Shown in pieces: positions 8,816 to 57,026 of a DNA stretch of 64,000 nucleotides (position 1 is the stretch's first letter; each line of letters starts with the position of its first letter). Both the position numbers and the translations under genes were made by a program. Below the pieces are notes generated by a model. It made no database searches. It was not told the origin of the DNA and saw only the letters and a program-made list of their open reading frames with translations. The stretch is from positions 11,724,908 to 11,788,907 of the forward strand of contig JAHRHZ010000223.1 in the NCBI GenBank assembly GCA_024137785.1, written 5' to 3'. This stretch comes from Ginglymostoma cirratum. Taxonomy: Eukaryota.

Positions 8816-11800
8816 CAGTATATAAAGGAGCTATTAAGCTCGTCAAGTCTTCACTGGCTGAGTAAAATAACCACCCATTCTCATCTCACTTACAAGCACC
8901 CTGGTCTGTGGTTTATAGGTTACAGTGCTTCAAGTGCAGAACCAGATTCTTCTTAAGTGAGTTCAGGGTTTCCACGCCAACTAGCAAACTTAAATGCAAC
9001 TTCCAGAAATCCACCACCCTCTTAGTGAAAGCACTTTTTCTTCTGTGCCCTCTAATCCTTCTACCATTCATCTTAGTTTATTCCCCTGATAATTGACCTC
9101 TCTGCTCAGTGTAACAGGTCTTCCCTAGCCACGCTAGCCAAGTCTATCATTATTTTGTAGACCTCGGTTAATTCACTCCTCAGCCACCTCATTCTAAACA
9201 AAATAAACTTAGCCTGCTCAGTCTTTCCTCAAAGCTGCAATTTTCAAGCTGTGGCTATACACTTGTATACCTCCTCTGTTCTCTTTCTGGAACAACTATA
9301 TCCTTCCTGTAATGTGGTGACCAGAACTGTACATAAAACTGTAGCTGTGGCCTAACCAGTGTCTTATGTATTTCTAATATTACAGCCTTACTTTCATATT
9401 CAATACCTCATGCAGTAAAAGAAAACATCCCATATACCTTCTTTACCATTTAACTTACCCAACCAGTTGGCTTCAATGATCTCTGACATGCACTCAAAGG
9501 TCTCTCACTTCCTCTACCCCAACAATATCCTCAATTTATTGTGCATTCGCGTGCTTTGTTTGTCCTTCTGTAACTTCACACTTCTCTGGAGCGAGTTCTA
9601 TATAACACTTTACCACAAAGTCAACCAAACCATTGATATCATTCTGTAATCAACTGCCATCCTTTTCATTATCAATGACACAAACAATTTTTGCATCCTC
9701 TGCAAATTTCCCAATCATGCTTCCTGCAATTCTGTTGAAAACATTTATATCTACCACTAACAACAAGGGACCCAATGCTGAAGTCAGTGAAACATCACTG
9801 GAAACTGCTTTCCACTCACAAAGACATCTACTGATGTTACCCTTTGTTTCCTGTCTCTGAGCAAATTTTAGATTCAACTTGTTACACTCCTTACATTCCA
9901 TGGGCTTTAGGCTTTCTGACTAGTCTGTCATATGGTTTCTTATTATGTGCCTGACGAAAATCTATGTAGACAACATCCATTGCATTATGTTCATCGATCT
10001 ACCTTGTTACTTCCTCAAACAATTCAATCATGTTAATAAAAATAACGTTCTCTTAACAAAACCATGCTAAATATCCCTGATGAATCTATGCCTTTCCAAG
10101 TAACAGTTAATCCCAACTCTCAATATCTGCTCTAGCAATTTTCCCACCACTACCAAGCAAAGTCAAACTTACTGATCTACAATTATTTGGTTTATCCCTC
10201 ATATACCTTTTGAATAATGGTACAATTTTTGCAGACCCTCAATTCTCTAGTTCATGGCCGACATCTAGAGAGAATTGGAAAACGATCCTCTGAGTGTCCA
10301 TTCTTCTCTCCCTGTCTTTGACAATCTTGGATACTGTTCGACCAGCCTTATACTTCCCTTGCCATTTTGCTTATTTTGTCTAATATTTCACACTCTTCTT
10401 TAACTAAAATGTCTGCTTCATCCCTCTCCTTTTTGAAGACAGCAATGAAGTACTCATTAAGAAGCTTGCCGGTATCTACCGCATCCATGGAAAAGTTCTC
10501 ATGTACATTTCAGATAGGCTGAAACCTTTGCTTATTCATCCTTTAACTCTTAATGTAATTATAAAACATTTTAGAATTTCCTTAATTTCATCAATCAATT
10601 TTTTTTTTGCATCGCCTCTTTGCTTTCCCAATTTATTTTTTCCACTTCACCCAGGCCTTTCTATACTCATCTAGGCTTTGTAATTTTTCACTTTTTAGGG
10701 ATTATCACAAACTACATTTTTCCACTTTTTCCCCACATTGTATGTTTCTGGATAACCAGGGGACTCTAGATTTAGCAATAGCACCTTTTTGCTTTGTGGA
10801 ACATGTTTATATTGTCATAAAATCATAGAATCCCTACAGTGCGGATGCAAGCCATTCAGACCATCAAGTCCACACCGACCCACTGAAGAGCGTCCATCCA
10901 CAAACTCTCCCGCTACCCCCACCATCCCCGCAACCCTGCATTTGCCATGGCTAACCCACTTTACCAACACATCCTTGGACACAATATGGAAATTTAACAT
11001 TGCCAATCCACCTAACCTGGCAATAAAATCAGATGTTGCTGGAAAAGCTCAGTAGGTCTGGCAGCATCTGTGAAGACAAACCAGGGTTAATGTTTTGGGT
11101 CTAGTGACCGTTCCTCTTTGGACTGTGTGAGGAAACCAGAGCACCCAAGGGAAACCCATACAGACACAGGGAGAACATGCAAACTCTGTACAAACAGTTG
11201 CTCAAACATGGAATTGAACCCAGATCCCTAGCACTGTGAGGCAACAATGCTAACCACTGAGCCACCGTGCCACCTTGCCCCTCAGACTCTTACCTCTAAA
11301 TCCCTCTCAGTAATTTGCCATCGGCTGTGCTTCAAATAGCTGCAACCAGTCCAAATCTGCCAAATCACCTGAGACTCGTAAGACCTGTCTTCGCCCTGAG
11401 ATGCAGAACTGTGACTCCAGCTGGCACTCGTGCGCCGAACTCCAGACTTCAAGTTTATGCAACGAGTTACATTTTCTGCAGCTGTGTTCATTTGGTTTCA
11501 TGGAATCTCTAAAGTGTGGAAACAAGCCGTTTAGCCCAACAAGTCCACACCGACTCTGTGAGGAGCATCATACCCAGACTCACCCCCCTACCCTATCCCT
11601 GTAACCCTGCATTTCCCACGGCCAATCCACATGACTCTGCACATACCATAGGATGTGCACTCCACTTGAAAGAACTGACCTGCCATACTATAAATTTAAA
11701 AGCTCTGCATTATGATTAAAAAGTAGAAACCTTACCAGCATTTATCTGAACTGAACAACAGGAGGCTGAAAACCCCAGAAAGGAAGAAAAGAACACTTCT

Positions 11801-12140
11801 CACCCCTACACCAAACTTTGTCAGACTTTCCAAAGTCCCACTTTAAACTCAGCACAACCAAAGCAACATTCAATGATAACAAGACAGCACTTATGGAGGC
11901 CTCTATTTATACTTCCTGAAATGACTGATTTCAAGTTTCAGAAAACTATTAAAACTAGACACCAATTAATCAGGTATAACTTCTCTTAGAGCTTGGAAAC
12001 TTTTGATTTAAAGCTGCAATAAAACTTAACTTCTCTTAACTTAAGTTTAAAGTTTACTTAATTGCCAAACTAAAGGAAAACTAGACTTTAGATGAAAAGA
12101 TTAACCCTTAGGAATCACAGACTCACCAGCACACAGAGCA
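8815..12140 (-). mobile_element. Old, heavily decayed CR1-clade LINE, interrupted by SINEs
   Basis: Minus-strand RT remnants (SALGPLLLVVDIN...IGKFAEDAK; ggtgaccagaactgtacata) and a CR1-like 3' region near 8.85-9.3 kb. Confidence 0.65.
10816..11274 (-). mobile_element. HE1/V-SINE-like tRNA-derived SINE with a short HHR-type element inserted at ~11020-11118
   Basis: Minus-strand head ggtggcacggtggctcagtggttagc; V-domain (gggtttcc...gggtgctctggtttcctc...cagtccaaag); CR1-like tail. Confidence 0.85.
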
Positions 12141-12144
12141 GACA

Positions 12145-12440
12145 AGATATTTAAGTTGAGATATTAAAAGGTCACATCTGTGTGCTCTGAGGAGTGTAAT
12201 GTATCCCACTGTGTTACTTCAAAGAAGAGCAAGGGAGTTATCCCTGATTTCCTTGACAGTGTTTATCCTTCAAGCAACGTAACAAAAAAGAAAGTGGTCT
12301 AGTCGTTATCTTGTATGGATTTGGTGTGTAGAACATTAGCTGCTGTGTTCCTTACATGACAACAGCAACTGTACTTTGTAAATGATTTCATTGGCTGTAA
12401 AACATTATGAGATGCCCAAGATAATAAAAAAGCACTGTTT
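12145..12440 (+). mobile_element. DeuSINE-like SINE, 3' part
   Basis: aagaagagcaagggagttatccctg...tttatcc...cattggctgtaaaac, typical of the Deu domain and tail. Confidence 0.6.
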
Positions 12441-12770: not shown

Positions 12771-12794
12771 CACTGACTGCTGTAATATACATGG

Positions 12795-13200: not shown

Positions 13201-16200
13201 TCCTCCACATGTACCAAATTGGTCAAACTGTGAGCCTTGGCTCTGCTGGCAGTCTCATATCTGAATCAGGAAGCCATGACTGAAAGCTCCTCAGTACCTG
13301 TGATTTTCAAAACTTATCACCTTAGGAACTTTCCTCACCTCAAAATAGATTCTGTTGTGGACAGACTGATGAGGACTGATTTCCATGACAAACAAAAAAC
13401 TCCGTGATTGTTGTGACATTTTCTGACAAAGCTGGTAAAAATTGAACCACTTGTGGCTTGATCTTCCATCATTCAGCAAACCCTTTGTTCCAAAGCCATC
13501 ACAAAACATAAATTCCCACAGAAAAAATGGAGCTAGGACACAGTTGTTTGGTAGCAATTAAGCTTGCACACACAGGACTAGCACCAATACTATTCTGTTG
13601 AAAAGGCAGAGTCTGAGTTAACAGTTTTTCACAATGTTTCACTGATGCTTTTCTCTGCAGCATTCTTTAAAACAAATGGGCTCACTGAGAGATCCACACA
13701 GACTCAGAACAATTTTAGTCTCAATTGTTGAGCTGTCGTACCTGTTGTTAGATCCTCAGGGTCTGTAGCTTTTCTCAAGATAATCCGTGCTAACCATGTC
13801 AGCTGTACTTTTAAGAATTGGAACTGATTAAACTTAAATTTTCTAAAGTGTTCAAGTGAAGAAACTCCCTTGTGAAGTGCATATCCATATATAATTTTCC
13901 TAACAGATCATTAAAATGTATAAATAAGGTGTGATTAATAGTTGCAGCTAGCTATGGATACAACATGCACCAAAACCAGCCACCTGATCAATTTAAGATA
14001 ATGAAAAGTCAAAGGAAATAGCGTGACATTTATAACAGGCCTTCTTTAGTTCACTCCTTAAATTACTGTTGTTGGTTGGATTTGGAGACGTGTGGTTTTC
14101 ATTTTTAAATGGTGATTCTGATAACTAAACTGATCTAGCAGATTTGCTAAGTCTGACTGAACTATGTAGCACTCAGGTGAACTATCACTTAGCAACAGCA
14201 AAGGCATTGGTTGGAGAAAATGCACTTTCTCAAACTTGCCTTTCTATCTTTAGGAACTTTCTGAACAGAGGGAGAGTTTGAATGGCATCTTAGGTAACCG
14301 TGGTCATCCTTATCAAGACTCTCAATCAAGATGTCAGAGAACAAAAGCCAAACATCAAAAAAAAACAAAAGATGATGGAAAATCTCTTGTTCATGTTACT
14401 CTATCCCAACCAGAATCAGGCCATAAAGCCAAGCTCATATAAGTAAAAGAAATTTCCAATGCAGACACAAGAAATAGAAACAGGAATGGGTCAAATGACC
14501 TCTTGAATCTGCTCCAACATCATAGCTGATCTTCTCACTCACCTCCACTCTTTTGCCCTGTCCCCACATTCCATGATTCCCTTTCTGTCCAAAAATCAAT
14601 CAAACTCAGAGGTGAACATACACAAGAACTAAGCAGGACCAGAATTTTGGGATGGGGAATTCCCAAAAATTCAAACCACACTCAGTGATGTAATTTCTAC
14701 TTTCTACTTATTGACTCGGGCCAGGTCTCTTCAGATTATTGCATCATTGACATGCACCCAATTTTATGCCGTTTGCAAGCTGAAACATTTTGGATAATAT
14801 TCCATCTTTTTAATCTTTTATGAAAATGATAAACAGCGAAAGCATAGTGATATCTCTGGAACTGCCAGTATCAACTTATTTTTAATCTGATGCCACCCAT
14901 TCACCTTTATCTTTGGCTGCCTTCTTTTCAGCTCTCCATTAATCTAGCCAAATAATTTGCCTATTCCAGGGGTCAATCAGTATAGTTTTAAGCAGTTTAT
15001 TTTGATTGCCTGTTTCTGGTGTAATCAAAATTCCACTGAGACCATCGCTGGGAGAAAATTTCCATAGCACTCGTCGTACTGATGGAAACAAAAACCTTGG
15101 GGCTGACACAACTTTACAGAGAACAGTTTCTTTCCACTTTGAGTGATCTTCATAGTTGCAATCATTCTTGAACACTGAGAAAACATTAATTTCTCCAGCA
15201 TTTTTCAAATACTACCTTTAATTCTCACCAGCTGTTTCTGCATTACTTGGAGAACTACAGAGTTCTCTCAGTGTCCTAAACAACAATATTCCCAAAAGCC
15301 AAGCGTTCAAAAACTGATTATCTGGTCAATTATTTCATTTGCTGCATGTGGCATCTTGCTATGTTAACTAGACTCCTGTATTCCATCAGTGTTTGCTCTT
15401 CAATACTAATTCAATGCTTGTAATGGTCACAATTTACTTGAGACACCCTGTCAACATGACTGGGTGCTTTTCAAATGGAAAATTATTTTTAATGTGAGCC
15501 CCTTCTATCTCAATCCTTAAAGCTGCTATCAATAGTAAGATGAAAATTTAGATTTGAAAATCGAATCTTGACTTCAACTGCAAGAATAAAGTGAAAGGAA
15601 TTCATCCAGCACTTGTTTGTTTGAAAGAAAACGCTCATAAGATTGAGAGTGGAATTTGTCTTAAATGAGAATCATAGATCTTTCTTTGTTGCTTTTAAAA
15701 GAACTTCACTGGTTAATTTCCTTCATTCTTACAGCAATATAACTACTGCTGCTGACCAGAAATGCAGCACATTACTGATGCACACTTGGCACACATTGTT
15801 ACTATGCTTACGATTTCCCACATCTGAAGACACATAGGCACAGCATCTTGTCTATTTTTTGTAGCTTGTTTCTTCTGGAATAGATCACTGCTTGAAACCA
15901 GAGGCTATAACTTCAGGGGTACCACCAGCCGCTGGCTTGTTGGAAGGATTTGCAGGCTGACAATCAACCGTTTTAGCCTCATTTTGAATGCATTTTCCAT
16001 GACATCAGATCCTGGAATGAGACATGAACCCGGAGCTCCTGGCTCAGAGATACTGACACTATCATTACATCACAAAACCATCTCAAAATCATATAAGACT
16101 ACCTCCCATTTACAACCATGACTGTTAAGTTAAAGTTTAGGTGGGAGATTGTATTAAATGGAAAACAAAAGTACTGGAGCTGCTCAGTATGTCAGACAAT

Positions 16201-16230
16201 ATCAGTGGAGAGAGGAGAATGTTGCTTTCA

Positions 16231-16545: not shown

Positions 16546-16574
16546 AAATACATTTTATTGAACTAGGGAAATGC

Positions 16575-17220
16575 TGTCAGCAGGTCAGGTGGGTACAGGG
16601 TGAAGAAAGTGATTAATGGCAGCAAAAGAACAAAGGGTCATGTCTATGATAGGGTGAAAGACAGAAAAGTAAAAGAGTTGGTCGTGGAAATCCAAAACAA
16701 GTGGCAATTGAACACAAAAATGATGTAACTAGAAGAGGTACGAACAGCAGCATGATGAACAACTGCCACCTGAATCTAAAAATGATGGGAAAAAAGTACA
16801 AGAAAATTTACCCAAGCGACAGGTTTCTAAATCAGGGCAGTGACTACACTCTGAAATTATTGAAATTATTATTGAACTGTTGCATCTGAAAGTAAAAGTG
16901 ACTAATAACCAAATGAACACCACTCCTTGAAATTATCTTCAGCTTTGCTGGACAAGAGTGCAATCCAAAGTCAGAGCAGTCAACATGAGTGTTGAGTGGC
17001 AAATTAAAGTAACCAGAGACCAGAAATTCAGAAGAATTGGCAAACACGATATTCCGCAAAGTTTATACATTTTGTGTAAAACCTATTCACTTCCAACCAT
17101 GCAGTTCTGATGAAAGGTCGGTGACGCAAAATGTTAACTTAACTCTGCTTGTCCGAAAGGCTGAGCATTTCAAGTGCTTCCTGCTCCTATTTCAGGTTTT
17201 CAGCATTCATAGTATTTCTT
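16575..17220. mobile_element. Old Penelope-like remnant with a degenerate hammerhead motif (17105-17140, +)
   Basis: gttctgatgaaaggtcggtgacgcaaaatgttaac plus flanks resembling the short HHR-element body. Confidence 0.45.
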
Positions 17221-17319
17221 TCTTCTATCAATTCACATTGTTTGGCTTATGTGCTTGAATAAAAATCATGGCAAATGAGTTGCCTTACATAATTTTGCTG
17301 AGTCGGTGGCAGAATTGGA

Positions 17320-17530: not shown

Positions 17531-17866
17531 ATTAAAAACCTGTGACTTTTATCCTTATTTTAACAAAATTTTACTGATCACCTCTGTGGAAGTCATAACA
17601 GTATGGACTAAGGTTGCGTTTTGATGTTACTACTCAGAGACATGGCAAAATATTAAAGAATGTGAGATGGGAATGAAGGGAAAAAAAGGTGACAGAAGGA
17701 TAGTGGAGAATAGAATGAGAAAGGCAGAGATGACAAAGGAAAAGGAAGAAATGTTGGGGTATATTATGACAGAGATAAAAGGTACTGCAGATGCTGGAGA
17801 ATCCGAGATAACAAGCATGGGGCTGGACGAACACAGCAGGTCAAGCAGCATCATAGGAGCAGGAAA

Positions 17867-17902
17867 ACTTGACGTTTCGAGCCTAAACCCTTCATCAGAA
17901 AT
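17867..17902 (-). ncRNA. Minimal hammerhead ribozyme motif
   Basis: Minus strand: auuu-CUGAUGA-a-GGGU-uuag-GCUC-GAAA-C-GUC-aagu. Confidence 0.75.
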
Positions 17903-19178
17903 GGGGGAGGGGAAGAGGGTTCTGAAATAAATAGGGAGAGAGGGGGAGGCAGATAGAGGATGGATAGAGGAGAGGATAGGTGGAGAGGAGGCAGACAAGT
18001 CGAAGAGGCGGGGATGGAGCTGGTAAAGGTGAGTGTAGGTAGGGGGTTGGGGAGGAGATAGGTCAGTCCAGGGAGGACGGACAGGTCAAGGGGGCGGGAT
18101 GATGTTAGTAGATAGGAGATGGGGGTGTGGCTTGAGGTGAGAGGAAAAACAGGTTAGGGAGGTGGAGATGAGCTGGGCTGGTTTTGGGAAGCGGTTGGGG
18201 GAGGGGAGATTTTGAAGCTTGTGAAATCCACATTGATGCCATTGGGCTGCAGGGTTCCCAGGCTGAATATGATTTGCTGTTCCTGTAGCCTTCGGGTGGC
18301 ATCACTGTGGCATTGTAGGAGGTCCAGGATGGACATGTCATCTGAGGAATGGGAGGGGGAGTTGAAATGGTTCGCGACTGGGAGGTGCAGTTGTTTGTTG
18401 CGAACTGAACGCAGGTGTTCTGCAAAGCGGTCCCCAAGCCTCCGCTTGGTTTCCCCAATGTAGAGGAAGCCACAATGGGTACAGCGAATGCAGTATGCCA
18501 CATTGGCAGATGTGCAGGTGAACATCTGCTTGATGTGGAAAGTCTTCATGGGGCCTGGGATTGGGGTGAGGGAGGAGGTGTGGGGGCAGGTGTAGCACTT
18601 CCTGCGGTTACAGGGAAAAGTGCCGGGTGTGGTGGGGCTGGAGGGGAGTGTGGAGCGGACAAGGGAGTCGCGGAGGGAGTGGTCCCTCCGGAAGGCGGAT
18701 AAGGGTGGGGAGGGAAAAATGTCTTGGTGGTGGGGTCTGATTGCAGATGGCGGAAGTGTCGGAGGATGATGCGTTGGATCCGGAGGTTGGTAGGGTGGTA
18801 TGTGAGGACGAGGGGGCTTCTTTTTTGGTTATTATTGCGGGGACGGGGCGTGAGGGATGTGTTCCGGGAAATGCAGGAGACACGGTCAAGGGCGTTCTCG
18901 ACCACTGTGGGGGGGAAGTTGCGGTCCTTGAAGAATGAGGACATTTGAGATGTACGGGAGTGGAATGTCTCATCCTGGGAGCAGATGTGGCGGAGGCGAA
19001 GGAATTGGGAATAGGGGATGGCATTTTTGCTGGAGGGTGGGTGGGAGGAGGTGTATTCCAGGTAGCTGTGGGAGTCAGTGGGCTTGAAATGGACATCTGT
19101 TTCTAGGTGGTTGCCCGAGATGGAGACAGAGAAGTCCAGGAAGGAGAGAGAAGTGTTGGAGATGGTCCAGGTGAACTT

Positions 19179-19578
19179 NNNNNNNNNNNNNNNNNNNNNN
19201 NNNNNNNNNNNNNNNNNNNNNNNNNNNNNNNNNNNNNNNNNNNNNNNNNNNNNNNNNNNNNNNNNNNNNNNNNNNNNNNNNNNNNNNNNNNNNNNNNNNN
19301 NNNNNNNNNNNNNNNNNNNNNNNNNNNNNNNNNNNNNNNNNNNNNNNNNNNNNNNNNNNNNNNNNNNNNNNNNNNNNNNNNNNNNNNNNNNNNNNNNNNN
19401 NNNNNNNNNNNNNNNNNNNNNNNNNNNNNNNNNNNNNNNNNNNNNNNNNNNNNNNNNNNNNNNNNNNNNNNNNNNNNNNNNNNNNNNNNNNNNNNNNNNN
19501 NNNNNNNNNNNNNNNNNNNNNNNNNNNNNNNNNNNNNNNNNNNNNNNNNNNNNNNNNNNNNNNNNNNNNNNNNNNNNN
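19179..19578. other. Assembly gap (400 N)
   Basis: Run of n characters. Confidence 1.
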
Positions 19579-19830
19579 ACCTGTTTTTCCTCTCACCTCA
19601 AGCCACACCCCCATCTCCTATCTACTAACATCATCCCGCCCCCTTGACCTGTCCGTCCTCCCTGGACTGACCTATCTCCTCCCCAACCCCCTACCTACAC
19701 TCACCTTTACCAGCTCCATCCCCGCCTCTTCGACTTGTCTGCCTCCTCTCCACCTATCCTCTCCTCTATCCATCCTCTATCTGCCTCCCCCTCTCTCCCT
19801 ATTTATTTCAGAACCCTCTTCCCCTCCCCC

Positions 19831-19866
19831 ATTTCTGATGAAGGGTTTAGGCCCGAAACGTCAAGT
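19831..19866 (+). ncRNA. Minimal hammerhead ribozyme motif, fully canonical core
   Basis: auuu-CUGAUGA-a-GGGU-uuag-GCCC-GAAA-C-GUC-aagu. Stem I pairs auuu with aagu. Confidence 0.8.
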
Positions 19867-21179
19867 TTTCCTGCTCCTATGATGCTGCTTGACCCGGGGT
19901 ATATTATGACCTTCAGTTTTGCAGCTGAATTTGTAGATGGCGTGAAAAAAGCTAACTCTGATGACCCTCATGGTCTAATAGCCTTCTGCCACCTGAAGTC
20001 TTATTTTCCATGATAACTAGCCAGAAGGTGACCTCAACTGCTGACCAAATCCGTTTGCAAGCTCTAGGTATGCCCTAATGTAACCTCTTGGGATATACAC
20101 CTCAGGAGAAAGGCTACCCACCAAGTACAATGCACTCTAGGAGTAACAACACCATGGTTGCCATGCCTCCTGTTTGAATAATTACCATGCCAAGTTGAAC
20201 AGCAGCCAGGAAATCACATCCCACTATCTTTCGGAGAGCAGTCGGCCTAAGGTCAAAGATATGTAAACGGTTATCTTGCCTCAAATGCTAATATTCCAAG
20301 TGCTAGGCCTTGTCTGGGGACAGATGTAGCAGTGGTCCTATCGTGTGTGCCTACAGCAATGTGCTACTGATGGAAGAAGTCACACCTCAGGGGATGATGC
20401 AGTGAGTACACAGCAGCAACTCCTTGCCTTGGCTGGGCTCCATCTCCAGGTTAAAAAGACTGGTACAAGGTCTGACAACTCCTGATGAGTTGTTTGTTCT
20501 TTGTTTAAAATGGATTTATTTTATTTACAGGGTTTCTTGCAATTAATTGTTAGCAGTGGAATTTCTTTGATCACAAACAATTCCATTTTGGCTGGACAGG
20601 TCCTTTATCATTCAGCTTTACCACCCGCCAGGATGCATTTCTGGTGGGTAAAACCCCACAATAAACGTCCACAGTCTCATTACTTATTACCTCTATAATG
20701 TACCCTAGGGCACACATTCGTGTCACAGATACAGACGTTTCAATTCATTTTCAGTATTTATACTCAGTGCTTGAATACTAATAAGGCAGTGAAAAGGCAT
20801 TCCACTTCATTCTACTTACTAATTCTCCTTTGCCATGTTGTTAGTTCTAACACTTTACTTCCCTCCTCCTCAGTTCTTTATTTATTCCAACGGGCTACTC
20901 TGAAATCGGCTTTAAAACACCGTCCCTGTTCAATTCAAAAAAACAAAACAGAAAATTCTAAAGATAAAATGAACAACAGGTCAGTTTGAAAGAGGAAGAT
21001 GATTACTGGGCAATATTTAATGCAGGCAAGAGAATTTCACCCACTGGCTAAAGACCTGGCATTAGCCCTGCACCTCCTCCTTTAGGGAACGGTTGTTGGC
21101 ACTAAGTTTTTCTTTAGTAATTAAGCAATCAGGGCAGGACCTTCCCTGAGAGAAAAGCTGACATTTCCCACTCAACTGG

Positions 21180-24111: not shown

Positions 24112-24113
24112 AT

Positions 24114-28682: not shown

Positions 28683-28818
28683 CCCAGAACTGAGGAAGGG
28701 TCACCGGACCCGAAACATTAACTCTGTGTTTTCCTTCTGCTGCCAGACCTGCTGAGCTTTTCCAGCAACTTTGTTTTTGTTCCTGACTTCCAGCATCCAC
28801 AGTTCTTTCAGTTTTTGC
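28683..28818 (+). mobile_element. Short non-autonomous element beginning with a hammerhead motif
   Basis: CTGAGGA-a-GGGTC-accg-GACCC-GAAA-cattaac followed by the gctgccagacctgctgagcttttccagca body. Absent from the paired left arm. Candidate TSD ttcgaatttc / ttagaatttc. Confidence 0.8.
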
Positions 28819-33800: not shown

Positions 33801-36457
33801 TTTTCTCAATTGATATCACCAAAACACCTAGCCCAAGTAACTGTTGAGTGAACATTCACTGCTATAGCCCAAACATACCATACTGTTATATATAAAATGC
33901 AAAGGTAAGCAGGTGAAAACCAACTCATTGTTCTGTCCTTATAAAGAAGGAGCTGTTGAAGGATCACAGTGAGAGAAGGACAGAATCTCTTGTTTGTTAT
34001 GTGATCCTGAATAAACTAGCCTGGCCAAACAGGAAGAGACTGGATGTTCCTATCCTATATTGGGGTAGAATGAAGGTGGAACAGCCAAAGAAAGATGCCA
34101 GCAGCAGGTTATGTGCCACGCTTCCACCTCTGTTCCCAACCCTGCTGACATTCCCAAGGATGGTGGAGCGAGCAAAGTCAGGGACAAGTGGGCAAGTGAA
34201 GTTGCCCTCCACCTTTAGAGCTTGCTTTCTAACACCCTGAGATTTCCATGGAGACAAGCGGTCATCAGGAGCTTTGTGAAGCTAACAAGCTCCAGTTTGG
34301 CAGGAACAGAGACAGAGGCCCTGAATCAGAACAGAAAATGTTGGAGAAACTCAGCATCTATAGAGAGGGAAACAGAGTGACAGCTTCAAGTCCATAGATT
34401 CACCCTCAGATCTACAACTGCACTAAATAACTTGTTGATAAGAAGATTTTGGAGAAAAAGAAATTATAGAACAGCAACTAAATTTTACCAACGGATCATT
34501 CCTGGGTACCAGCCCACTATTTTCCCAGGCCACTTCAAATACGAAGATCTTCCCATTTTGTTTTGCTTTCATCCACTATGTGCAACCCACCAGCAGTAGC
34601 TGCTGATTCAGGCCAGTATGGGGTCCAGTTTCCTACTGTTCCACCTCCATTCCCTCTCCTCCTGACCAGCCACTGATCGGGCATCAGAACCATCTCTAGA
34701 ATCAAGAAGACTCCAACTCTCTCTTGGGGCTGTGGATGAAGACAGAATTGTGAGCCAGAATCCTTCACACTTTCCAATTGCCACTTTGACTGGGAAGGTC
34801 TGGTCCCTCTGAGATGCCAGTCTATCCCAGGTTGATAAAAACAAAGGCAGAGTACTATGGATGCTGGAAATGCAAAAAAAAAATACAGAATCCTGGAGAA
34901 ACTCAGCAGGTCTGGCAGAATCTGTGGAGAGAGATCACCATAGACACTGACAGACCTGTTGATCATATTAAAACTGAGAAGTGGGAATAATAGCCAGTGA
35001 TGGTTAGAGTTTTCTATATGTTTTAGTAAAGAGAGGATCTGTTACCTGTCATTAATTTTTTTTTACAATAGAAATGGAGTTCAGAAAGCCAACACATTTT
35101 GCTGCACCTTTTACTTTGTTTTGTTTTATTGAAGACCTCAGGATTATTGATAGCTTGATTCACTTTTTACTCTTTTAATGTTTATTATGACCTTACATTC
35201 AGGTTTCACATTCATGTGTTCTGTACATGTGTATATGCTTGACTTCAAACATTCAGAATTGACTCTCATTAGCAAACTCAGCTACTCTGACATTTAATGA
35301 CAGCCATACTCTGCATGGTGCCTGTTAATCACAGTCTTGTAGGATTCACTGAGCTGGTACTGACAACGTACTATTTCATACAGATCGCAGGTAGATTTCA
35401 ACGATTTCTCATCAATCTCAGGATGCTTTTATATCATTACAGGGTCGGTTATGATTCAGATTTAAACATTACCGGAGAGGATAAACATGGTAGCTTCATG
35501 TAAAACCAAAAAAGATGATTAAATATAAGAAAGTGCAACTGTCTCCATGCAAGGTCTTCTAATTATCTTTTGTTTTCTCTCTCTTTGGTACTGAGAAAAA
35601 TTGAACTCGTTCCATTCCAGCTATCCACTCTTCGGACAAAGCACAGCCAGGAATGAAGCAAAGTTTCCCAACTTTGGAAAAACTCCTTCTGATTTGATTT
35701 ATTGTTGTCACATGTACCTGAATACAGTGAAAGTTTTGTTTTGTGAGCAGCAGAGGCAGATCATAATGCATAACAGCATTAAAAATTTGTCAAGAAAATA
35801 ATGTAAAGTTCCAATTGGCTGAATGTCGGACTGGCATCTTGTGAAATTTTACTTCACGCTTGAGTGCAAATCCAAAGAAGTGGTAGCCTGCTTCACTGTG
35901 TGAGCCCATACTCTTTGCCTAATGTCACACCTAAATGACATTGTATGCTTTATTTTGTTGCAAAGCAGAAGCCATTTTACATCAGGAAGTGGTGGAAATT
36001 CTCAGTAAGTAAGACAGCATCTGCAAAGAGAGAAACAGAGTACATATTTCAGATCAATCACTTTCATTAGAATGTCAACATTCAGGTCATTAACCTGAGA
36101 TGTAGGGAAAAGGCAGGAGATAGGCACCAAGTTAAAATGTTCACAGAGTTAGTGCAGACACAATGGGCTGAATGCCTCCTTCTGCTCTGTACTGGTTCTG
36201 CACTTCTCTCTTCATAAATCCTGCTACACTTCCTGAATATTTCCAGCATTTTCCATTGATTTTCAGAATCCACAGTATTTGGCTTTTCTATATTTTGTTA
36301 GTTTCATAATTGGGGATTGGTGGGGCCAGTGAGTTTTTTAACAGAACACTGGAAGAGACTCCCCGCTCTATTTCAATTAGTCCTATGCCCACATTAACAG
36401 TAAGATCAATGAGTTTAGCCTTGGATTAGTGTACCTCCAACAATGGCAATACTTCCT

Positions 36458-38381: not shown

Positions 38382-40275
38382 AGATTGTCTTATGAAGAAA
38401 GATTGGTCAGACTAGGTTTGTATCTGCAGCAGTTTAGAAAAGTAAGAGAGATGATTTGATCGAAACACACAACAAACTGTGAGGTCTTGATAGTTTTTTT
38501 TTAAATTTGTTCACTGGATGAGAGTGTTGTTGGCTAGGCAGCATTTACTGCCCGTCCTAAGAATCAACCACATTGCTGTGGGTCTGGAGTCACATGTATG
38601 CGGAGGCGATGGCCTACTAGTATCACTGGACTGTTAATCTAGAGATCCAGATAACGTTCTGGGGACCAGGATTCAAATCCCACCACAGCAGATGGTGGAA
38701 TTTTAAGAACATAAGAACTAGGAGCAGGAGTAGGCCATCCGGCCCCTCAAGCCTACCCCGCCATTTAATAAGATCATGGCTGATCTTTGAGACTCAGCTC
38801 CACTTACGCGCCCACTCACCATAACTCTTTTCTGATGAAGGGTCTAAGTAGGCCCAAAACGTCAAGCTTTCCTGCTCCTATGATGCTGCTTGGCCTGCTG
38901 TGTTCATCCAGCTCCACACCTTGTTATCTCGGATTCTCCAGCATCTGCAGTACCTATTATCTCCTACACCCTTCATTCCTTTACTGTTCAAAAATTTATC
39001 TAGCCTTGCCTTAAAAACATTCAGTGAGGTAGCTTCAACCACTTCACTGGGCAGGGAATTCCACAGATTCACAACCCTTTGGGTGAAGAAGTTCCTCCTT
39101 ACCTCAGTCCTACATCTGCTTCCCTTTATTTTGAGGCAATGCCCTCTAGTCCAAGTTTCACCTGCTAGCAGAAACAACCTCCCTGCCTCCACTTTATCTA
39201 TTCCCTTCATAATCTTATATGTTTCTATAAGATCTCCCCTCATTCTTCTGAATTCCAGTGAGTATAAGCCCAGTCTACTCAGTCTCTCCTCATAATCCAA
39301 CCCTCTCAATTCTGGAATCAACCAAGTGAATCTCCTCTGCACCCCCTCCAGTGCTAATATATGTCTTCTCAAGTCAGGAGACCAAAACTGCACACAGTAC
39401 TCCAGGTGTGGCCTCACCAGGACCCTATACAGCTGCAGCATAGCCTCCCTGTTTTTAAATAAATATCTGGAATTAAAGGTCTTACAATGACCATCAATCC
39501 ATTGTCAATTGTTGGAAAAAACCCATCCGGTTCACTAATGCCCTTTAGGGAAGAAAGCTGCCATCCTTATCTGGTCTGGCCTACATGTGACTCCAGACCC
39601 ACAGTAATGTGGTTGACTCTTAACTGCCCTTTGGGCAGTTAGGGATGGGCAAGAAATGCTGCCTAGCCAGTGATGCCCTCATCCCGTGAATGAATAGAGG
39701 GAAAAAAAGGCCTGACCAGGTTAGAATGGCGGTTTCCTTCCCTAAAGAGCATGAGTAGACCAGATGGGATTTTCCCCCAACAATCAATTCATGGTCATCA
39801 TTATAATCTTAATTCCAGATATTTATTGAGTTCAAATTCCACCATCTACTGTGGAGGGATTTGAACACAAGTCCACAGAACATTATCTGGGTCTCTAAGT
39901 TCACAGTCCAGCAATAATACCCCTAGACCATCACCTCCTCCTCCAACAATAGATGTGGTCAATTTGGAGATGATGTTTCTTGTTATTGGAGAATCAAGAA
40001 CTAGTAATCACACTTTAAAAATCAGGGATTGTCCACTTAAAACAGGGATGAGGTGAAATATACTTCTCTCAAAAATATGTGACGTTGGGATGCACAGTGG
40101 TGGAAGCAGAGTCATTGAATATTCTCAAGACCAAGGTTAATAGTTTCTTGTTAAGTAAGGGAGAGAAACATTACCAGGGTAAGGAGGAATGTGGATTTGA
40201 GGCTACAATCAGATTAGTCATGATTTTATTGATGGGCAAAGGACTGAATGGTCTACTCCTGCTCCTTGTTTATAT
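38382..40275. mobile_element. Nested cluster: CR1(+) > SINE(-) > SINE(+) > CR1(-) > HHR element(+)
   Basis: Each outer element resumes after its insert. Inner CR1 ORF 38878-39441 has LVRPHLEYCVQFWSP...RNFFTQRVVNLWNSLP. Confidence 0.8.
38830..38963 (+). mobile_element. Solo 3'-terminal fragment of the Neptune-type Penelope, starting at the hammerhead motif (GAAA mutated to AAAA)
   Basis: ttctgatgaagggtctaagtaggcccaaaacgtcaagctttcctgctcc...tattatctc matches the reverse complement of 5688-5818. Confidence 0.85.
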
Positions 40276-42329
40276 GTCGTGCACCTGGAAGAACCTCCTA
40301 CTCATCTATACAGTAGTGTCTTGGGATTTCTTTTTTTTGTTATCGACCGGTTTGGTATGCCACATTTCTGTGGCCATCGCATCCCAAGTTCAGACTTGAA
40401 TCTGGACCTTCTGGCCCAGATGAAGTGACATTACCATTGCGCCAGAAGACCATCCCCTTGGGATTTTATTAAATCCACACCAGTGTGCAGGTATGTTCAA
40501 TGCCCCATTGAAAAGGCAGTATTTCTGATAATGCGGCTCATCTTCAATACTGCACTGCAGCGAGTATAACTCAGAAGCAAACATTTGACCAAGTGAGCCA
40601 CTGCTGAAACCTTAATCAGACATTTATTTGATTTATGGATGTATCAGTACTGATGCTGGGGTTCGTCATTCACTGAAAGTGGGGAGGGACTGTGACTGCC
40701 AATACTGCTGATGTTGAAATCTTTATGTTGCCACACGTTGTGGGGTCTAAGTGGATTAAAAATATTGGAGAAACAAGTCAAAGCTGTCATTAATACCAAT
40801 GACCTTATTCATTTGGAAATATTTAATTCACTTTAGATTTTCCTTCCTCTTGGGTTTTTCACACCAACTTTTTTTAATGTAGGCTAAATTCATGAATTTA
40901 TTTGTTTCAATTTATCCCACTCATTTCGATCCCAATTATGTCTCCTACTTCGGGTCTTCGCTATTCACATGGATTTCAAAGTTAAAAGTTTCACTTGCAA
41001 AAGGACAGCAAATAGAGTGCGATATCTAGCATGCCTGAATTTGCAAACAAACTTTGATGTTCAAATTATATGGCAAATGACAAGTGAAGAGACTGGTGGT
41101 CAGATAGATTATTCAGGTCAAGTGAATCTTTATGTGTGCTCCATAGACAGTGGCATATTGGTAATATGTCAAACAGAGGGTGATAAAGTTCTGTATCATG
41201 GTGCTCTGTTACAAAATATATTAAAGTACAAACTTACCGAAAGATGTTTGGATTTTGAACCTGCATTGGAATGTAGGAACAGGATTGAGCCATTCATCCC
41301 ATCAATGGAGCTGAGTGGAAACAAATCAAGACATAATTAATGCTGAAATTATAAATTTTACAAAAACATAGATTCTCAGAAAATGAATCAAAATTTAGTT
41401 GCAAGAGGAAAGCAGAACGCTGCAAATCTGAAACTATAATAGAAAATCTTAACAACACTTAGCAGGTCAGTATGGAGGCAAAAATCAAGTTAACATTTCA
41501 GTTTGGTGACTCTTTTTAAACAGCTGGAGTTCAGCTGGGACCACTTGTACTCTGAGTCAGAGATTGTCTTTTCAATTCAAGCTTAGGGGCAGGAGTGTGG
41601 ATAGATAGACCAGTGCATCTGCACCCAAAATTAAAGCAGTCAGCCAGAACAGTTTCAACAAACTCGGTCTGCAGCCATAATGCACTACAGGTGGACTCAA
41701 TCAGAGGATATTGGGATTTATGTTCCTCAGTGAAATCTGACTGGCCAGCAGCTCCAATGGTCTCAGCACTCCAATGGTGGGTTCCGCTGGAACAGAAACC
41801 AGTCTCAGGTTGAAGCCATTGGGATCTTGGATCCAGCTAAGTGAGGCACATTGGGCAGAGAGTCTGGCAACAAATGGGATGTTGAATGTGAGCAAAGGGT
41901 GTGAAGAGTTGGGTTTTAATGTCCCTACAGAGAGGAAGGAAGAATGGGTATTCTCTTTGAGGGGAAGGGGGTTGAGAGACAGGGAGGGAACTGCCCTTGT
42001 TGCACAAAGGGTGTCTTCTGAAGACAGCATACACATTCCTGCTCTCCTGAAGACTTGTAAGAACAAAGTGCTGCCCTCTCACACACAGCCAATCTCTTCA
42101 ACTGTTTTATGGCATGGGCCAGGTTATACTGTGGTCAGGTGGGCTTTTAACAAACTCAGCTGACCCTAATCACTTACTTACAAATGGCGGTTAAGCTGCC
42201 GATTTCAACATGCAAACACGCTCCATTAGCAAAGTGACGAGGAAGGCGGTGGGCTGAACACCCTCTCTATTTTACATGGCTCTCACCCCCATTGAAAACA
42301 CACTCCAAGTGGGAGCATATAGAACCCTC

Positions 42330-43685: not shown

Positions 43686-43696
43686 CTGTAACAGAA

Positions 43697-45310: not shown

Positions 45311-48289
45311 GTATAAATCAGTTAGCAATGTGTTTAAACGTCCTGTTCTCAATTAGTCTGGAGAGGATTTCTCTTTTTTTCCTCGTCTCTCCCTCTTTGT
45401 TCAATGTGTCAAGGCTTCAGTGAATTACATGTCACCGTCACTGGTTTAGGCTGAAAGCAGTTACTGAGAAGCAAGTTAAATCTTTCAGCTCCATTGTTTA
45501 CACTTTCCTGGGACGCCAGAACTTGCCGAAGCGGGGGACTCACTGTATGAGCGCAGGGAAGAGTGCCAATGTTATTGAAACATTTGGGGATGGGGGCGTG
45601 TAATTGTTCCTTGGATCAGTTACGAACTCGCTATCGGCTGGATGGTGGCGAAGATACCATTGTTTTATCCATATATAAATAGTCACAGAACGGTTCCGCG
45701 ATTATCCTGAGTTCAAAACAAAGATTGTTTTGTAAGACCATCCCCACTTGATTCTCCTTAGGGTCCTGATACAGAATCTTAGCGAGTAGAACTCAACAAT
45801 TTGCAAGCAAAAAAAAATGAAGATTTGGATGCTTCTGTTTAAGCAGAGCGAATAAACTTATTCTAACGATTTGGTTTATTTTGACTTGTTGAAACCTTAA
45901 TTTGTAAGGTGAGGTGTAAAAAGATGCCATGGTAGAAACTTTAAACCACCTTTTAAAAGCATTTCGGCGTTTATTTCAACTGCGTTTGCCAGAAATGGCG
46001 ATATTTTAAAGCTTTGTTATGATGTAACTCTTCCACCTTTAGTTCATATTGTCTGTAAGTTTTAAATGCTAGAATGGGATCAATAAAATCCTGCCCCTTG
46101 TGTATACCGTCAAAAAATTAACTGCAATTATAAACTAACAGGGTGCTGGCGAATTTTGTTGACTGGAATAGACAAGGACAGGAGAGTCCGTGTTTACGCG
46201 TAAAACTAAGTTCTGGGTTACGGTGACAGGAGTGCATTCGTGAACCAGGGAGAGACAGGGGACCAGAGACTGTCCGTTAGACCTGGCCTAACAGTGACAA
46301 AGAGAGGAGTGTGAAGCTGAATCTCACGCTATAAGAATGGATAGTGTTTTTGTTTTGTTTTGGCAGGTTTATCTGTGATTGTTTTTAGTATGTGGTTTGT
46401 TTATGATTGCTATCAAAGAATAATACCCACTGGTGCACCGTCAACCTGCAAGTGATGAATAAACTTGAAGAATAAAACCCGAAGGCAAATTACCTTGGTG
46501 TGCTTTTCAGAAAGTTAGAGCCAGGTTTGAAAACGGTGCCAAATTCGGCATATCCTTTCGATCGAATTGCTGGTTTTAGAGTGTGGAAGGTCCCAAATTT
46601 ATTTTCCACTTGTGAAAATTTTAACTAGCCCCGCACTTGAAGTCAGCCACACGTGAACTATGTTGCCCGGCTCACTATTGAGCCGGACTGACAAGACAGA
46701 GAGGTAATGCGATTTTGCAGACGCTTACTTACTCAGCCTTTATGGAACGGGGGGAATTCAGACCACACTGCGCTGTACTCCACAGTCTTCAACCACTATG
46801 TTAACCAGGCGTGGAAACAATTGAGCTGCCGTCCTTTATAACTTGCAGTGGTTGGGGTTACACTGTTGCGCGGTGGTGGTGTCATAACATCTCTCAACAG
46901 GTTGCTTAGAAAATATCGATACTGTTGGTGAGATTAAAATAATAAGATTGCCGCACAAGGCTGGGGAGGGAGAATCCATGGAGTGAATTTGAGACAGAAA
47001 TACATAGATTCCTGATTAGTGAGGGGATCAAGGGTTATAGAGAGATGGCAAGAGAGTGGAGCTGGGAAGCATATCCTCCATGCTGGAATAGAGGTGGAGA
47101 TTCAATCGGCCGAATGGTCTAAATTCTGCTCCTATTTCTAATGGATTCCATGAGTTGGGTCAAAAGAGGAGGCCGTTCGGACCTTGGTGCCTGCTGCTGT
47201 CAAGCTATCAGAGTATGGCTCATCCATTCATCCAACCCAGCTCAGTTCCAGCAGCTGCAACTCTTTGGAAGAGGAGGAAAGATATTGATTCCTACTCTCC
47301 TTTGCCTAAAAATGCGTTCACCTGATTTTCCCACGTCCACAATTCCCCCTTTCCCCGCTCCCGACTGACTCCTGATGTCCTCGCCAGAGGAAAGAGTTTC
47401 TCTGTATCTACTCTCTGGGTAATGAAAGCAAAGTAGTGGTGGATGTTGGAGATCATAAATAAAAACAGAAAGTGTTGGAGATACTCAGCAGGTCTGGGAG
47501 CATCACTGGAGAGAAAAATTTATCTCAACTTCGTGCCAGACCTGCCAAGTTTTTCTGGCACTTTCTGTTTTCTTTCTAGCCTGTGGAGTCTTTGTCACAT
47601 TAGCAACACCTCAGTGATGTGGTCTTATCAAGGCTTATAGGAAAGGACAGGAAAGTGAAAGTGAGGAGTTGGATCAGCAATGATCCTGTCGAACCAAAAA
47701 GAAAGAAATTGCTGGAGAAACTTATCAGGTCTGGCAGCATCTGTGGGGAGAAAGCAAAGTTAACATTTAGTGTCCTTCATCAGACGTAGTAGTAGCTAGG
47801 AAACGGTCGTATATATGCTGAAGACAGGAATGTGGATGATTGAGGAGTGACAGCATACCTAGAGAGCAAGCCCAGGGAGAGAAAAAGACAGGCAAAGGCG
47901 TAGATAATGGTATGTCATGGAAGAAGACAGGCTGATAAAGGGGACCTTAAATAAGTGAAATGGCAACACATGGTGGCAAAGCCTATTGAATGGCGGAGCA
48001 GGATTGAGGGGCCGAACGGTCAACTATTCCTATTTCTTGTGGTGTTAGGTCACCTGGTCAACAGTCTAACGACTGTGGAACATAAGCCTAGTGCATGCAA
48101 GTCTCTGCAATCCTCAGCCCCGCTATCATCCCAATATATTTGTGCTCTACCTCCCTGGAAGATCCAACCATCTTTACTGACATGGGCAAATGTAACAAAC
48201 TGCTCACAAAGACGTGGGACTCAAACCAGAGGCAGGGGCACTCGCTGCACCACAAGAGCCCTTACAGCATGTTGCTGATTTGCACAATG

Positions 48290-48601: not shown

Positions 48602-49704
48602 CTATGCAACCATTTCAAAAAGGGGCAACTGCTAAGGCTCCATGGATTTCAAATGGGTTAAGACGCCACGTGGATCCTTTAAAGAGACTCGATCTCTGAC
48701 CTGGACAAACAGCAGGTCCGGAGGACATGGTGATGCAGGAGGCATACCTGCGAGAGTTTTACCTTTTTAAAAACAAAATCACAACCTTAAGAACAAATTG
48801 CCTGGCGTCGTAATCCCCTGACAATAAAGAGGATAAAGTCGAGTCGTAACTCCTTTTTTGGCAAATATCCTAATCAGAAACTGTCGAGTGTAACATCAGG
48901 CAGATTTGTTGAGACTTTTATGTTGAGTTTGGAGAGGACGTGATTTATAGATATTATTTTCGGCGATTTTCCTTTTGATTAGTTAGATTAAAATTAGAAT
49001 TAGAATTAGAATTCAAAATTAAGTGAATATTTAAATCTGAAATTCGTGTATCACTCTCCCACATTGCAATCTGGAGCTGTTATTAATTTTATTCAAACAA
49101 AGCTTATTATGGAATCTATAAGCCGCTAGCTCTTCTTGTGAACAATGAATACAGTACAGGGGCCGCAGAGAGATTACAATGGTTTCCCACTTTGCAAAAA
49201 CTTTGTACTGAGCAGGGTGCGCATCTCGGATCTTCGCTCTGCAACATCACAACTGCAGGCTTTAAATGCTGGGTCTAATTTTTCATATGATACAGTGTGC
49301 ACGCTGTGGGAAGGGTGTAACTTCTGACTGACCACAGTTTTTCATCGCATGGCTGTGCTTTTCTAGACTTCTGTTTTTAGAATGTTGCAGCAGTTTTGTG
49401 CACTGGTTCGCACAACGTGGTCGCTAAGACAAAAGCCCAAGATTGCAGATGCTGGAAATCCGAAATTAAAGCAGGAAGTGCTGAAGAAACTCAGCAGTTC
49501 TGGCTGCATCTGTGGAGAGCAAAGGAGCCAGCGTTTCTCCTGTGTCTTATTTGGAACCCGCAGCAGGACGGTCATTCGGCCCACTGTATCTCTGCCAACA
49601 CTTGAAAGAATAGTCCCATTAGTCCTATATAGCTGGTCTATCCCTATAGCCTTGCATTTTCCATTCCATTTCATTCCCTGGGAAGGCAGGTCTGACCTGT
49701 GAAG

Positions 49705-50137
49705 GGAGACTGAATCGGTTAGAACTTTATTCACTGGAGTTTAGAAGAATGATGGAGGGGGATTTCACAGAAACTTATAAAATTCTACCAGGATTGAACA
49801 GCTGGAAAGATGTTCCCGGTGACCTGGGAGTACAGACCAGGAGACCGGAATCCAAGGATACAGGATAAGCCATTTAGGTCTGCAATGAAGAGAAATTTCT
49901 TCACCCAGAGGGTGAGGAGGCTGTGGCATTCTCTGCCACTGAAAACAGTTGAGGTCAAAACATTGAATGTTTTCAAGAAGCAGTTAAGTTTAGTTCTTAG
50001 GGCTAAAGGGATCATAGGAATGTGGGGAAAGCAGGAACAGGGTACTGAGTTGGATGATCAGCCCTGCTTATACTGAATGGCAGGGCAGACTCGAAGGGCC
50101 AAGTGGCCTATACTTGCTCCTATTTTCCATGTTTCTA
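49705..50137 (+). mobile_element. CR1 3' fragment
   Basis: RNFFTQRVRRLWHSLP motif and a CR1 3' UTR. Confidence 0.8.
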
Positions 50138-51296
50138 ACCTTAAATACAATTCATTTCCGAAATTCACTATTGGATCTGTTTTCACCGCCCTTGCAGATT
50201 CTAATCGATTTAAAGAAAGGAAGTTCACCTCCCGTCCGCTTTATATATGTTATTGATTCAGTCATGATCGCCGGCCTGGGCAGCATGTATCATCCAGTGG
50301 ACAGCGCATTAACAGTCAACCACATTGCTTGTGCATCTGAAGTCAAATGGAGGCCAGGCCAGAGAAGGAGTGCAGATTTCCTTCCCTAATTAACATGAGT
50401 GAACCAGATGGGTTTTGACAATCTCCCGATTTTCACCATCCTGCTAGCTTTTACTCTACTGTTATTATTGAATTCAAAAATCCACCCTGATGGGATTCCA
50501 ACTCATGTCTCCAGAACATTAAGCTGGACCTCTGGATTACCAGTTTAAACCTTTACTAGATCTTAGTTAAATTGCAGGACAATGAAAGGTCACAAACTGC
50601 TAAACGGGTGGCATTAAACTGTTTTTGTTCTCGTTTTCTGTCTGCTCAAGGCCGCCAGGCAGTTGTAAAGGCAGAGACAAAAAACAACTGCAGATGGTGG
50701 AATCCAAAGTAGACAAACAGGAGGCTGGAAGAACACAGCAAGCCAGGCAGCATCTGGAGGAAAGGAGTAGTCAATGTTTCAGGTATAACCCTTCTTATAA
50801 AGGCAGAGCTGCCCTGCCCGAAAACAGCTTTTTGTGGAAGTTAGATTGTTTTAACAAGGCTGTGAGGGTTCAGGTGGAGCTTTTGCCTCAAGATGGGAGG
50901 GTAGGGGTTGCAAAAGACTCCGCGCATACTCCTTGCAGCAAACTGCACAGAAGCAGTCGGAGGAAGCAATATTCCTCCTTTCACCATTAGGTTTTCCAGC
51001 GTTAGTGCAGAAACCAGAATAATCCCTTCATTCAGCCCCATCTCTCTGGGAAGTGATATTCCTCCTGCAATTTTTGTTTCACTCTTGGCTAACTTACAAC
51101 CTCAGAATCTTGCAACTGTCCGGTTCGCTCAGATCTCCCCCTGCCTAGTATTGGTTACCTCTAGGCAAAATGCCTTCCCATCAGTGGGCCATAGACATCA
51201 CAGTGATTTTGCCCTTTCCCTTCACACGCCCGACCTCAAGTAGAAAGCAACGCTTTCATGATGTCCTTCTCACAGCTAAACCAATAGCCAGAAACA

Positions 51297-51440
51297 CTTG
51301 TTCTGAAGAAGAGTCCCTGAAGCCGAAACATTCGCAACTGTTTCTCTGTCCATAGAAGCTGCCAGACCCGCTGAGTTTCTCCAACCTATTTCTGTGTTTG
51401 TTTCAGATTTCCAGCATCTGCAGTTCTTGGCTTTATATTG
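51297..51440 (+). mobile_element. Short HHR-type element, degenerate
   Basis: ttctgaagaagagtc...ccgaaacatt...gctgccagacccgctgagtttctcca...ttccagcatctgcag. Confidence 0.6.

Positions 51441-56990: not shown

Positions 56991-57026
<36 letters not shown>

Follow-up and report, generated by a model that had tools for sequence, protein, structure and literature searches.

Which process fixes the front end of a repeat that starts at a ribozyme? This question is raised by a window of 64,000 nucleotides from Ginglymostoma cirratum (GCA_024137785.1, contig JAHRHZ010000223.1, positions 11,724,908 to 11,788,907 of the forward strand; all coordinates below are those of the window), a stretch of AT-rich animal DNA in which short non-coding copies with a hammerhead-like head are dispersed. 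A preliminary description regarded them as one class of retrozyme-like, ribozyme-delimited derivatives of Penelope-like elements (PLEs). According to the present analysis, the elements are solo or inverted pseudo-long terminal repeat (pLTR) pieces of endonuclease-containing (EN+) PLEs with minimal hammerheads. As such, they belong to a known kind; the mechanistically useful regularity is their shared 5' edge. Their 5' ends pile up where the hammerhead begins, and this clustering is real.

Identification of the copies

A profile was trained on eight of the copies listed in the preliminary description and run over the window with nhmmer, using the reversed window as control. It gave 22 matches at E ≤ 1, 21 of them at E ≤ 1e-5. 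All 13 listed sites were covered and are thus real; the best matches in the reversed window had E-values of 0.38 and 0.7. From the profile matches and alignments, 17 insertion events were counted (Table 1): two long elements, ten short copies (stubs) starting at the helix I edge or in the CUGA box of the hammerhead, two starting near GAAA beside another repeat, two headless inverted pairs and one stub (47695) which probably extends about 150 nt upstream. The stub at 16162-16219 had been missing from the earlier list. The 25811 copy and its twin at 28847-28941 are one event, doubled by an inverted duplication with long arms. The assumption of one class with a shared body held with respect to common homology, but the copies are a mixture of subfamilies with a mean pairwise identity of 0.62 (range 0.49-0.86, nine copies compared); the closest pair of stubs in the window has an identity of 0.86.

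The 400 nt upstream of 20 matches were compared pairwise. Sequence was shared only among the long Neptune copies and overlapping stretches, apart from one weak match to a LINE-like piece (LINE, long interspersed element). The neighbouring repeats, which recur in the window, are presumably SINE-like (SINE, short interspersed element) or LINE-like. Using the general A- and B-box patterns of RNA polymerase III (Pol III), no B box was found in any of 15 stretches scanned and a single A-box match was antisense, in agreement with the preliminary description. A tRNA search found no tRNA genes, and the stubs have no Pol III SINE head of the tRNA, 5S or 7SL type with A and B boxes. Rfam returned no hammerhead family, its two matches being chance hits to miRNAs. 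No viral contig matched in a pattern scan, and the sole metagenome match was dropped as a chance match in unrelated sequence. Two roles of the body were considered. A conserved start of an open reading frame (ORF) was ruled out by eye, the subfamilies differing by 1-nt indels, and a body hairpin was not used, the RNAalifold stem being weak (-4.1 kcal/mol) with a two-sided change at 1 of 12 pairs.

Hammerhead cores

A hammerhead-like head is present at 10 of the 13 listed sites, and nine begin at or in the CUGA box; the 49430 copy retains GAAA only, and those at 34845 and 47425 are headless inverted pairs. Over 13 aligned heads, the majority base is correct at 11 of 11 core positions (in 9-13 of 13 heads each), so that the consensus keeps an intact core. 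The majority has the CUGAnGA, GAAA and UH core with helices I and II and no helix III, and the heads carry the extra base after A9 and the palindromic 15.2-16.2 step of the published minimal motif. A canonical type I hammerhead with helix III was not present in the heads examined. Helix pairing was found in 71% of cells versus ≤ 51% in slid controls. A minimal-hammerhead descriptor found four intact motifs (three Neptune heads and one Poseidon head) compared with none in 30 shuffles. The heads noticed earlier are thus borne out as a majority core, but 0 of the 13 listed copies pass the descriptor individually.

The 15.2/16.2 CG reads CA or TG in eight of ten non-Neptune heads; the core losses are typical of CpG decay. 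The copies in the window are relics decaying at CpG sites. Position 17 of the cut triplet is U, i.e. GUU, in nine of ten non-Neptune heads and C in Neptune. A predicted co-fold of two Neptune heads favoured a helix II dimer over a helix III dimer. Tandem heads 34-50 nt apart occur in a handful of contigs (28690-28735) and could permit dimerisation of the minimal ribozyme. Minimal hammerheads are also carried by a Poseidon-type element at 28128 (+) and 26489 (-), unrelated in sequence to the stubs; the one at 28128 passes the descriptor.

Kinship with Neptune-type PLEs

The terminal module, consisting of a minimal hammerhead, a body and an optional tail of about 34 nt, also closes two long elements that lie between target site duplications (TSDs) at 5688-6962 and 17771-19895. 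In translation, the long elements encode a GIY-YIG domain behind a CX4CxxC linker. The clade was assigned from a CX2-5CxxC linker before GIY-YIG together with cysteines inside GIY-YIG, both found in the long element, a mark which is common to Neptune and Nematis. Among 1732 candidates, 86 matched the PLE protein; its closest named relative, from a carpet shark, shares 83% identity. The untranslated region (UTR) preceding the hammerhead of the long elements has a pyrimidine share of 0.81-0.82.

The 38830 stub is about 91% like the long Neptune elements and its homology to their terminal repeat is direct; the remaining stubs are 40-68% like them. By this homology, the stubs are decayed terminal pieces of a known kind, corresponding to the 3' pLTR of Neptune-type PLEs. 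Stubs other than 38830 are, by their divergence, older sister subfamilies whose own long partners were not seen in the window. The copies are non-coding and PLE-derived and were likely inserted by PLE reverse transcriptase (RT) and endonuclease.

Position of the 5' ends

The head is the last part common to the subfamilies and homology alone is therefore insufficient to place a 5' boundary, hence, ends defined otherwise were used. Positions are given relative to the C of CUGA. The 28683 copy ends at -7 (TSD and empty site), the 50794 copy at +4 to +6 (14-bp TSD), the 11116 copy at +3 to +5 (empty site in three copies of the host repeat) and the 38830 copy at -2/-3 (known UTR), the last two to three nucleotides before CUGA, where a start within a few nucleotides of the box had been noted. 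Instead of being scattered at random, the ends cluster between -7 and +6. For four uniform ends, a position within 14 nt has a p-value of 0.0005-0.009 over 260-100 nt, the 14-nt interval having been chosen afterwards.

The cut is predicted after +28 to +30, which is 22-37 nt downstream of the four defined ends. Therefore, cleavage does not make the boundary and the template was uncut. Ends made by cleavage were rejected for this reason, and the description of the elements as ribozyme-delimited in the sense of self-cleavage is not supported.

Public contigs from the runs X1 (possibly the source of the window itself) and X5 (a relative) were aligned to the 28683 head; the results refer to the matches listed, 12 of 102 rows. 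This alignment is blind to ends at the cut itself, where a minor class is possible. Loose ends before 28690 were found in 466 of 751 (X1) and 1924 of 3064 (X5) partly aligned contigs. In about 2,400 contigs of the two runs, the shared sequence ends about 6 nt upstream of CUGA. A mismatch in the 28683 reference forces a clip there, and the informative part is the sequence further upstream. Upstream of the clip, the contigs have only about six letters in common and agree at 0.39, with an A-rich plurality (14 and 17 of 24 letters). Towards the body, they agree at 0.61-0.62, with a plurality that matches the body. In a simulation, in which agreement was assumed to be the mean plurality share, 0.39 fits about 10-20% of contigs having one common upstream sequence. 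The two UTRs seen have 4 and 6 A in 24 letters; thus, the A-rich plurality is not expected from a mixture of pyrimidine-rich UTRs. Minor rows of contigs retain about 10-12 shared letters and some copies do extend upstream. A few partial tandems were also found in the contigs, in which the second unit resumes 4-6 nt before CUGA. In the window, a pyrimidine-rich upstream sequence was present in only 1 of 11 short heads tested, namely 47695 (pyrimidine share 0.69; 99th background percentile 0.68). In the open literature searched, which did not include subscription papers, Lunse et al. 2016, bioRxiv supplements or the Dfam and Repbase libraries, no 5' pile-up of this kind was found.

Insertion marks and 3' ends

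Four TSDs of 11-15 bp (12, 15, 11 and 14 bp) were found among 18 stretches searched, those of the two long elements (12 and 15 bp) being perfect. Of 60 random sites, five reached the score of the 11-bp TSD; for the 14-bp TSD, it was one of 60. None was above chance for 14 of the 18 stretches, and the 11020 stub is joined without a TSD at a target loss of about 4 nt. The 28683 copy had been proposed to be an independent insertion; this is confirmed by its 11-bp TSD with one mismatch and the empty site in the paired arm.

The 3' ends are bimodal, 95 and 129 nt from the C of CUGA, and the 34 nt between them correspond to the PLE 'tail'. In inverted pairs, the tail is found on one arm only. The copies thus show an optional one-sided tail within the 30-40 bp known from PLEs, and insertion with a TSD or, in one case, a join without TSD. 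Public contigs from four runs (X1, X5, X10 and X16) were aligned to the Neptune end; the following counts refer to the matches listed, 24 of 1871 loose-end rows. Heterogeneous AT-rich flanks begin at 5722/5723 in all four runs (265 + 89 contigs in X1, 888 in X5, 763 in X10, 207 + 70 in X16) and contigs break at 5688 in two of four (146 in X1, 108 in X16). These break points are 67 and 101 nt past the predicted cut. In the Poseidon element PAc of Anolis carolinensis, the tail separates two internal RT start sites (PMC11167929), and PLE inverted pairs were described with a one-sided tail (PMC3846280; bioRxiv 10.1101/2021.04.23.441226). The TSDs, the inverted pairs, the two 3' ends and the homology to the Neptune end make mobilisation by Penelope RT and endonuclease likely, as proposed before.

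Origin of the shared 5' edge

The explanation which we tentatively favour, at somewhat less than an even chance, is that the copies of the terminal module, likely inserted by PLE RT and endonuclease, end at the front of helix I because the template RNA began there. By analogy with the Anolis element, the two 3' end points would be two internal RT start sites. If the PLE transcript bears the module at both ends, an RT that initiates at a tail site of the front copy would reach the 5' end of the RNA and run off after about 100-135 nt, and the joining step may trim or add a few bases. The RNA 5' end would be a candidate RNA polymerase II (Pol II) start at an initiator (Inr)-like sequence overlapping the 5' strand of helix I, which is the weak step. 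Using the general Inr pattern, an Inr-like sequence with A at -4 was found in all three long Neptune heads and in the contig plurality; of the 700 CTGA sites of the window, 26 have it. In vitro, PAc RT was shown to initiate internally on uncut RNA (PMC11167929), and the Penelope element of D. virilis has an internal promoter with Inr and downstream promoter element (DPE) in its pLTR (PMC2377424).

Several observations weigh against this explanation. Of the four defined ends, two fall inside the CUGA box rather than before it, four of the 17 events begin at GAAA or in the body, and one probably extends upstream. For the young Neptune family, summed contig depth has no step across CUGA in four runs (bins 5807-27 versus 5828-48: 0.92/0.97, 3.6/4.5, 3.7/5.3 and 0.78/0.93 million), whereas a strong run-off product should yield one; contig depth is not copy number, however. 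The counts are of contigs rather than copies or reads, by which unique junctions are favoured. For the main stub subfamilies, the window showed no autonomous partner. Helix covariation in the 13 decayed copies was matched by 38 of 500 shuffles and is not significant. The degenerate Inr pattern falls partly on positions constrained by a helix. In D. virilis, transcription starts about 120 nt upstream of helix I, and the helix I edge is instead a splice acceptor. A splice acceptor at this edge was ranked low here, as the AG at -4/-3 in the plurality of the main subfamilies is missing in the Neptune family and the contigs have no common upstream exon. The long Neptune copies have a long pyrimidine tract ending in AG, resembling a splice acceptor, about 22 nt upstream of CUGA (locus 5794-5823, -; AG near 5840).

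The fold itself might set the boundary, either by halting a 5' exonuclease at a protein-bound hammerhead or by snap-back of the cDNA on helix I, which would end synthesis. This is possible and ranks below the RNA start; we regard it as unlikely. The 5' strand of helix I falls at the boundary, the PAc protein aids folding and cleavage of its hammerhead (PMC11167929), and one contig per run in four of four runs has an inverted body fused at the edge of helix I (5786 to 5818, on opposite strands). This join is the product expected of helix I snap-back and may be a single old locus. However, helix I has only 3-5 bp, the cDNA of three heads is predicted to fold at -1.2 to -3.1 kcal/mol without closing the full helix I, no strand-switch joints occur among the matches listed on the 28683 head, and a plain RT block would be expected to halt the cDNA at the 3' side of the fold, not at the 5' side. 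Ordinary 5' truncation, in which the cluster is an artefact of the hammerhead being the last part conserved among subfamilies with their own UTRs, appears rather improbable. It would agree with the diversity of the subfamilies, the lacking depth step in Neptune, the upstream extension of 47695, the minor contig rows with 10-12 shared letters and the published interpretation of single minimal hammerheads as truncated PLEs (PMC4209133), but all four ends placed by a TSD, an empty site or a known UTR lie at -7 to +6, the upstream plurality is A-rich, unlike the UTRs, and only 1 of 11 short heads follows a pyrimidine-rich sequence.

In a further alternative, the stubs are a self-propagating family of SINE scale, whose members retain the start signal and the RT start sites and are transcribed and copied in trans. 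The length of the stubs is fixed at both ends, and contigs with a head that resemble the 28683 copy mostly share no upstream sequence. The triplet at the cut affects the cleavage rate, and GUU suggests relaxed cleavage. In a rotifer, pLTR sequence alone is enough for mobilisation in trans (PMC3846280). Such a family is nevertheless quite unlikely, given that young identical stubs are missing in the window and that the single short copy of the Neptune family resembles the long ones at about 91%, which a by-product would be expected to do. Least probable are non-LTR retrozymes, i.e. ribozyme-cut elements borne by circular RNA. They also have a type I hammerhead in a non-coding dispersed repeat, derive from pLTRs, are common as monomers and occur in one chondrichthyan genome (bioRxiv 10.64898/2026.07.22.740005). 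Here, the motif is minimal rather than canonical, without helix III, and the ends lie away from the cut; no tandem arrays of head-to-tail units, for which a check had been suggested, were found among 34 tandem-repeat rows of the window, and the contigs contain a handful of short tandem joints only. Two fixed 3' ends and inverted pairs are marks of target-primed reverse transcription by PLEs. The term 'retrozyme-like' is therefore not supported.

Comparison with known systems

Minimal hammerheads in the pLTRs of metazoan PLEs (Cervera and De la Pena 2014, PMC4209133) share with the heads of the window the type I fold without helix III, the palindromic 15.2-16.2 step, the extra base after A9 and the short helix I. 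The motif was reported in fish Neptune, Xena and Poseidon elements and in thousands of solo copies, mostly dispersed single motifs. Sharks and the start points of solo copies are not treated in the available parts of that study, and GUU at the cut distinguishes the main subfamilies here. The available parts of PMC6155905 add nothing on sharks. Insertions of EN+ PLEs are characterised by 5' truncation, an inverted pLTR, a one-sided tail of 30-40 bp and solo pLTRs (PMC3846280; bioRxiv 10.1101/2021.04.23.441226). Inverted pairs, a tail on one arm and TSDs or microhomology joins are found in both cases. Solo pLTRs without TSD are ascribed to recombination or deletion in those reports, whereas at least two stubs described here have a TSD of their own and a common 5' point.

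With PAc (PMC11167929), the window copies share two internal RT start sites, putative in their case, one tail apart and downstream of the hammerhead, and uncut RNA as main template. PAc belongs to another clade and has its ORF start in helix II, while the body of the window copies lacks a conserved frame across its length; a 5' pile-up is not described in the available parts of that paper. Non-LTR retrozymes (PMC7229834; bioRxiv 10.64898/2026.07.22.740005) are likewise non-coding, have a type I hammerhead and are related to pLTRs. Their definition requires tandem units, and in PMC7229834 also canonical self-cleaving motifs and circular RNA; in contrast, the stubs are dispersed, minimal and not bounded by the cut.

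Coordinates and other features of the window

Table 1. Copies of the terminal module and related elements in the window (5' ends relative to the C of CUGA).
Position	Strand	Element	Ends and insertion marks
5688..6962	-	5'-truncated Neptune-type PLE: RT C-terminus, CX4CxxC linker, GIY-YIG, pyrimidine-rich 3' UTR, intact minimal hammerhead, body, tail	CUGA C at 5816, predicted cut after 5789; 12-bp TSD 5676-5687/6963-6974
11020..11116	-	Short tail-less stub within SINE-like repeat	5' end +3 to +5; ~4-nt target loss, no TSD; empty site from three other host-repeat copies
16162..16219	-	Stub not listed before	Begins near GAAA, beside SINE-like 3' end
17101..17225	+	Stub with head (G12 changed) and tail	Homology begins at ~-4
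17771..19895	.	Neptune-type PLE (- strand, with tail) and inverted tail-less pLTR (19579-19895, +); heads at 17898 and 19835 intact	15-bp TSD 17756-17770/19896-19910; N gap 19179-19578
25811..25914	+	Tail-less stub with head (G5 changed)	Twin at 28847-28941
28683..28817	+	Stub with all 11 core positions, 5' arm of helix I replaced, tail	5' end -7; 11-bp TSD 28672-28682/28818-28828; paired arm without copy
28847..28941	-	Second copy of the 25811 stub in the opposite inverted arm (same insertion event)	
34317..34414	-	Decayed tail-less stub with head	
34842..34963	.	Headless head-to-head pair	Tail on - arm
35958..36290	.	Head-to-head pair with LINE-like piece between	- arm: decayed head, no tail; + arm: tail
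38829..38963	+	Short solo copy of Neptune family, G12 changed, tail	Begins at -2/-3
41405..41520	-	Heavily decayed stub with head remnant	
47428..47575	.	Headless head-to-head pair	Tail on - arm only
47695..47940	-	Tail-less stub, helix II partly deleted	Probably ~150 nt more upstream in pyrimidine-rich UTR; upper coordinate approximate
49428..49537	-	Stub with tail	Begins near GAAA beside LINE-like piece
50677..50794	-	Third-subfamily stub with tail	5' end +4 to +6, within CUGA box; 14-bp TSD (1 mismatch) 50663-50676/50795-50808
51297..51440	+	Stub with all 11 core positions, 3' arm of helix I disrupted, tail	Homology begins at ~-3

The 400-N gap within the inverted Neptune insertion covers the junction between the arms. 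A decayed Poseidon-type PLE (about 26400-28220) lies within inverted arms of about 1.2 kb (25483-29261). The arms run about 1 kb past its own pLTR into apparent host DNA, which includes an older stub, and are 95%, 98% and 93% identical by segment. They are possibly due to flank capture during insertion. An intronless reading frame of a large Maf-family bZIP protein is located at 56362-57573, and the repeats lie on its upstream side.

Implications

The stubs bear on the PLE replication cycle and on the task of its hammerhead. In a far-reaching reading, which we consider unlikely, Neptune RNA would start at the hammerhead front, and the module of 100-135 nt would be a self-sufficient, Pol II-started passenger class of SINE scale, copied in trans by PLE proteins and equipped with a start signal, a non-cleaving GUU hammerhead and two RT start sites. 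If true, the edge common to the copies would preserve, across the genome, a fossil of PLE 'strong-stop' DNA. Thousands of insertions which start before the predicted cut and have two fixed 3' end points indicate that uncut RNA was copied in a vertebrate germ line, in agreement with the single in vitro study, and the stubs point to a testable start or stop of the RNA at helix I.

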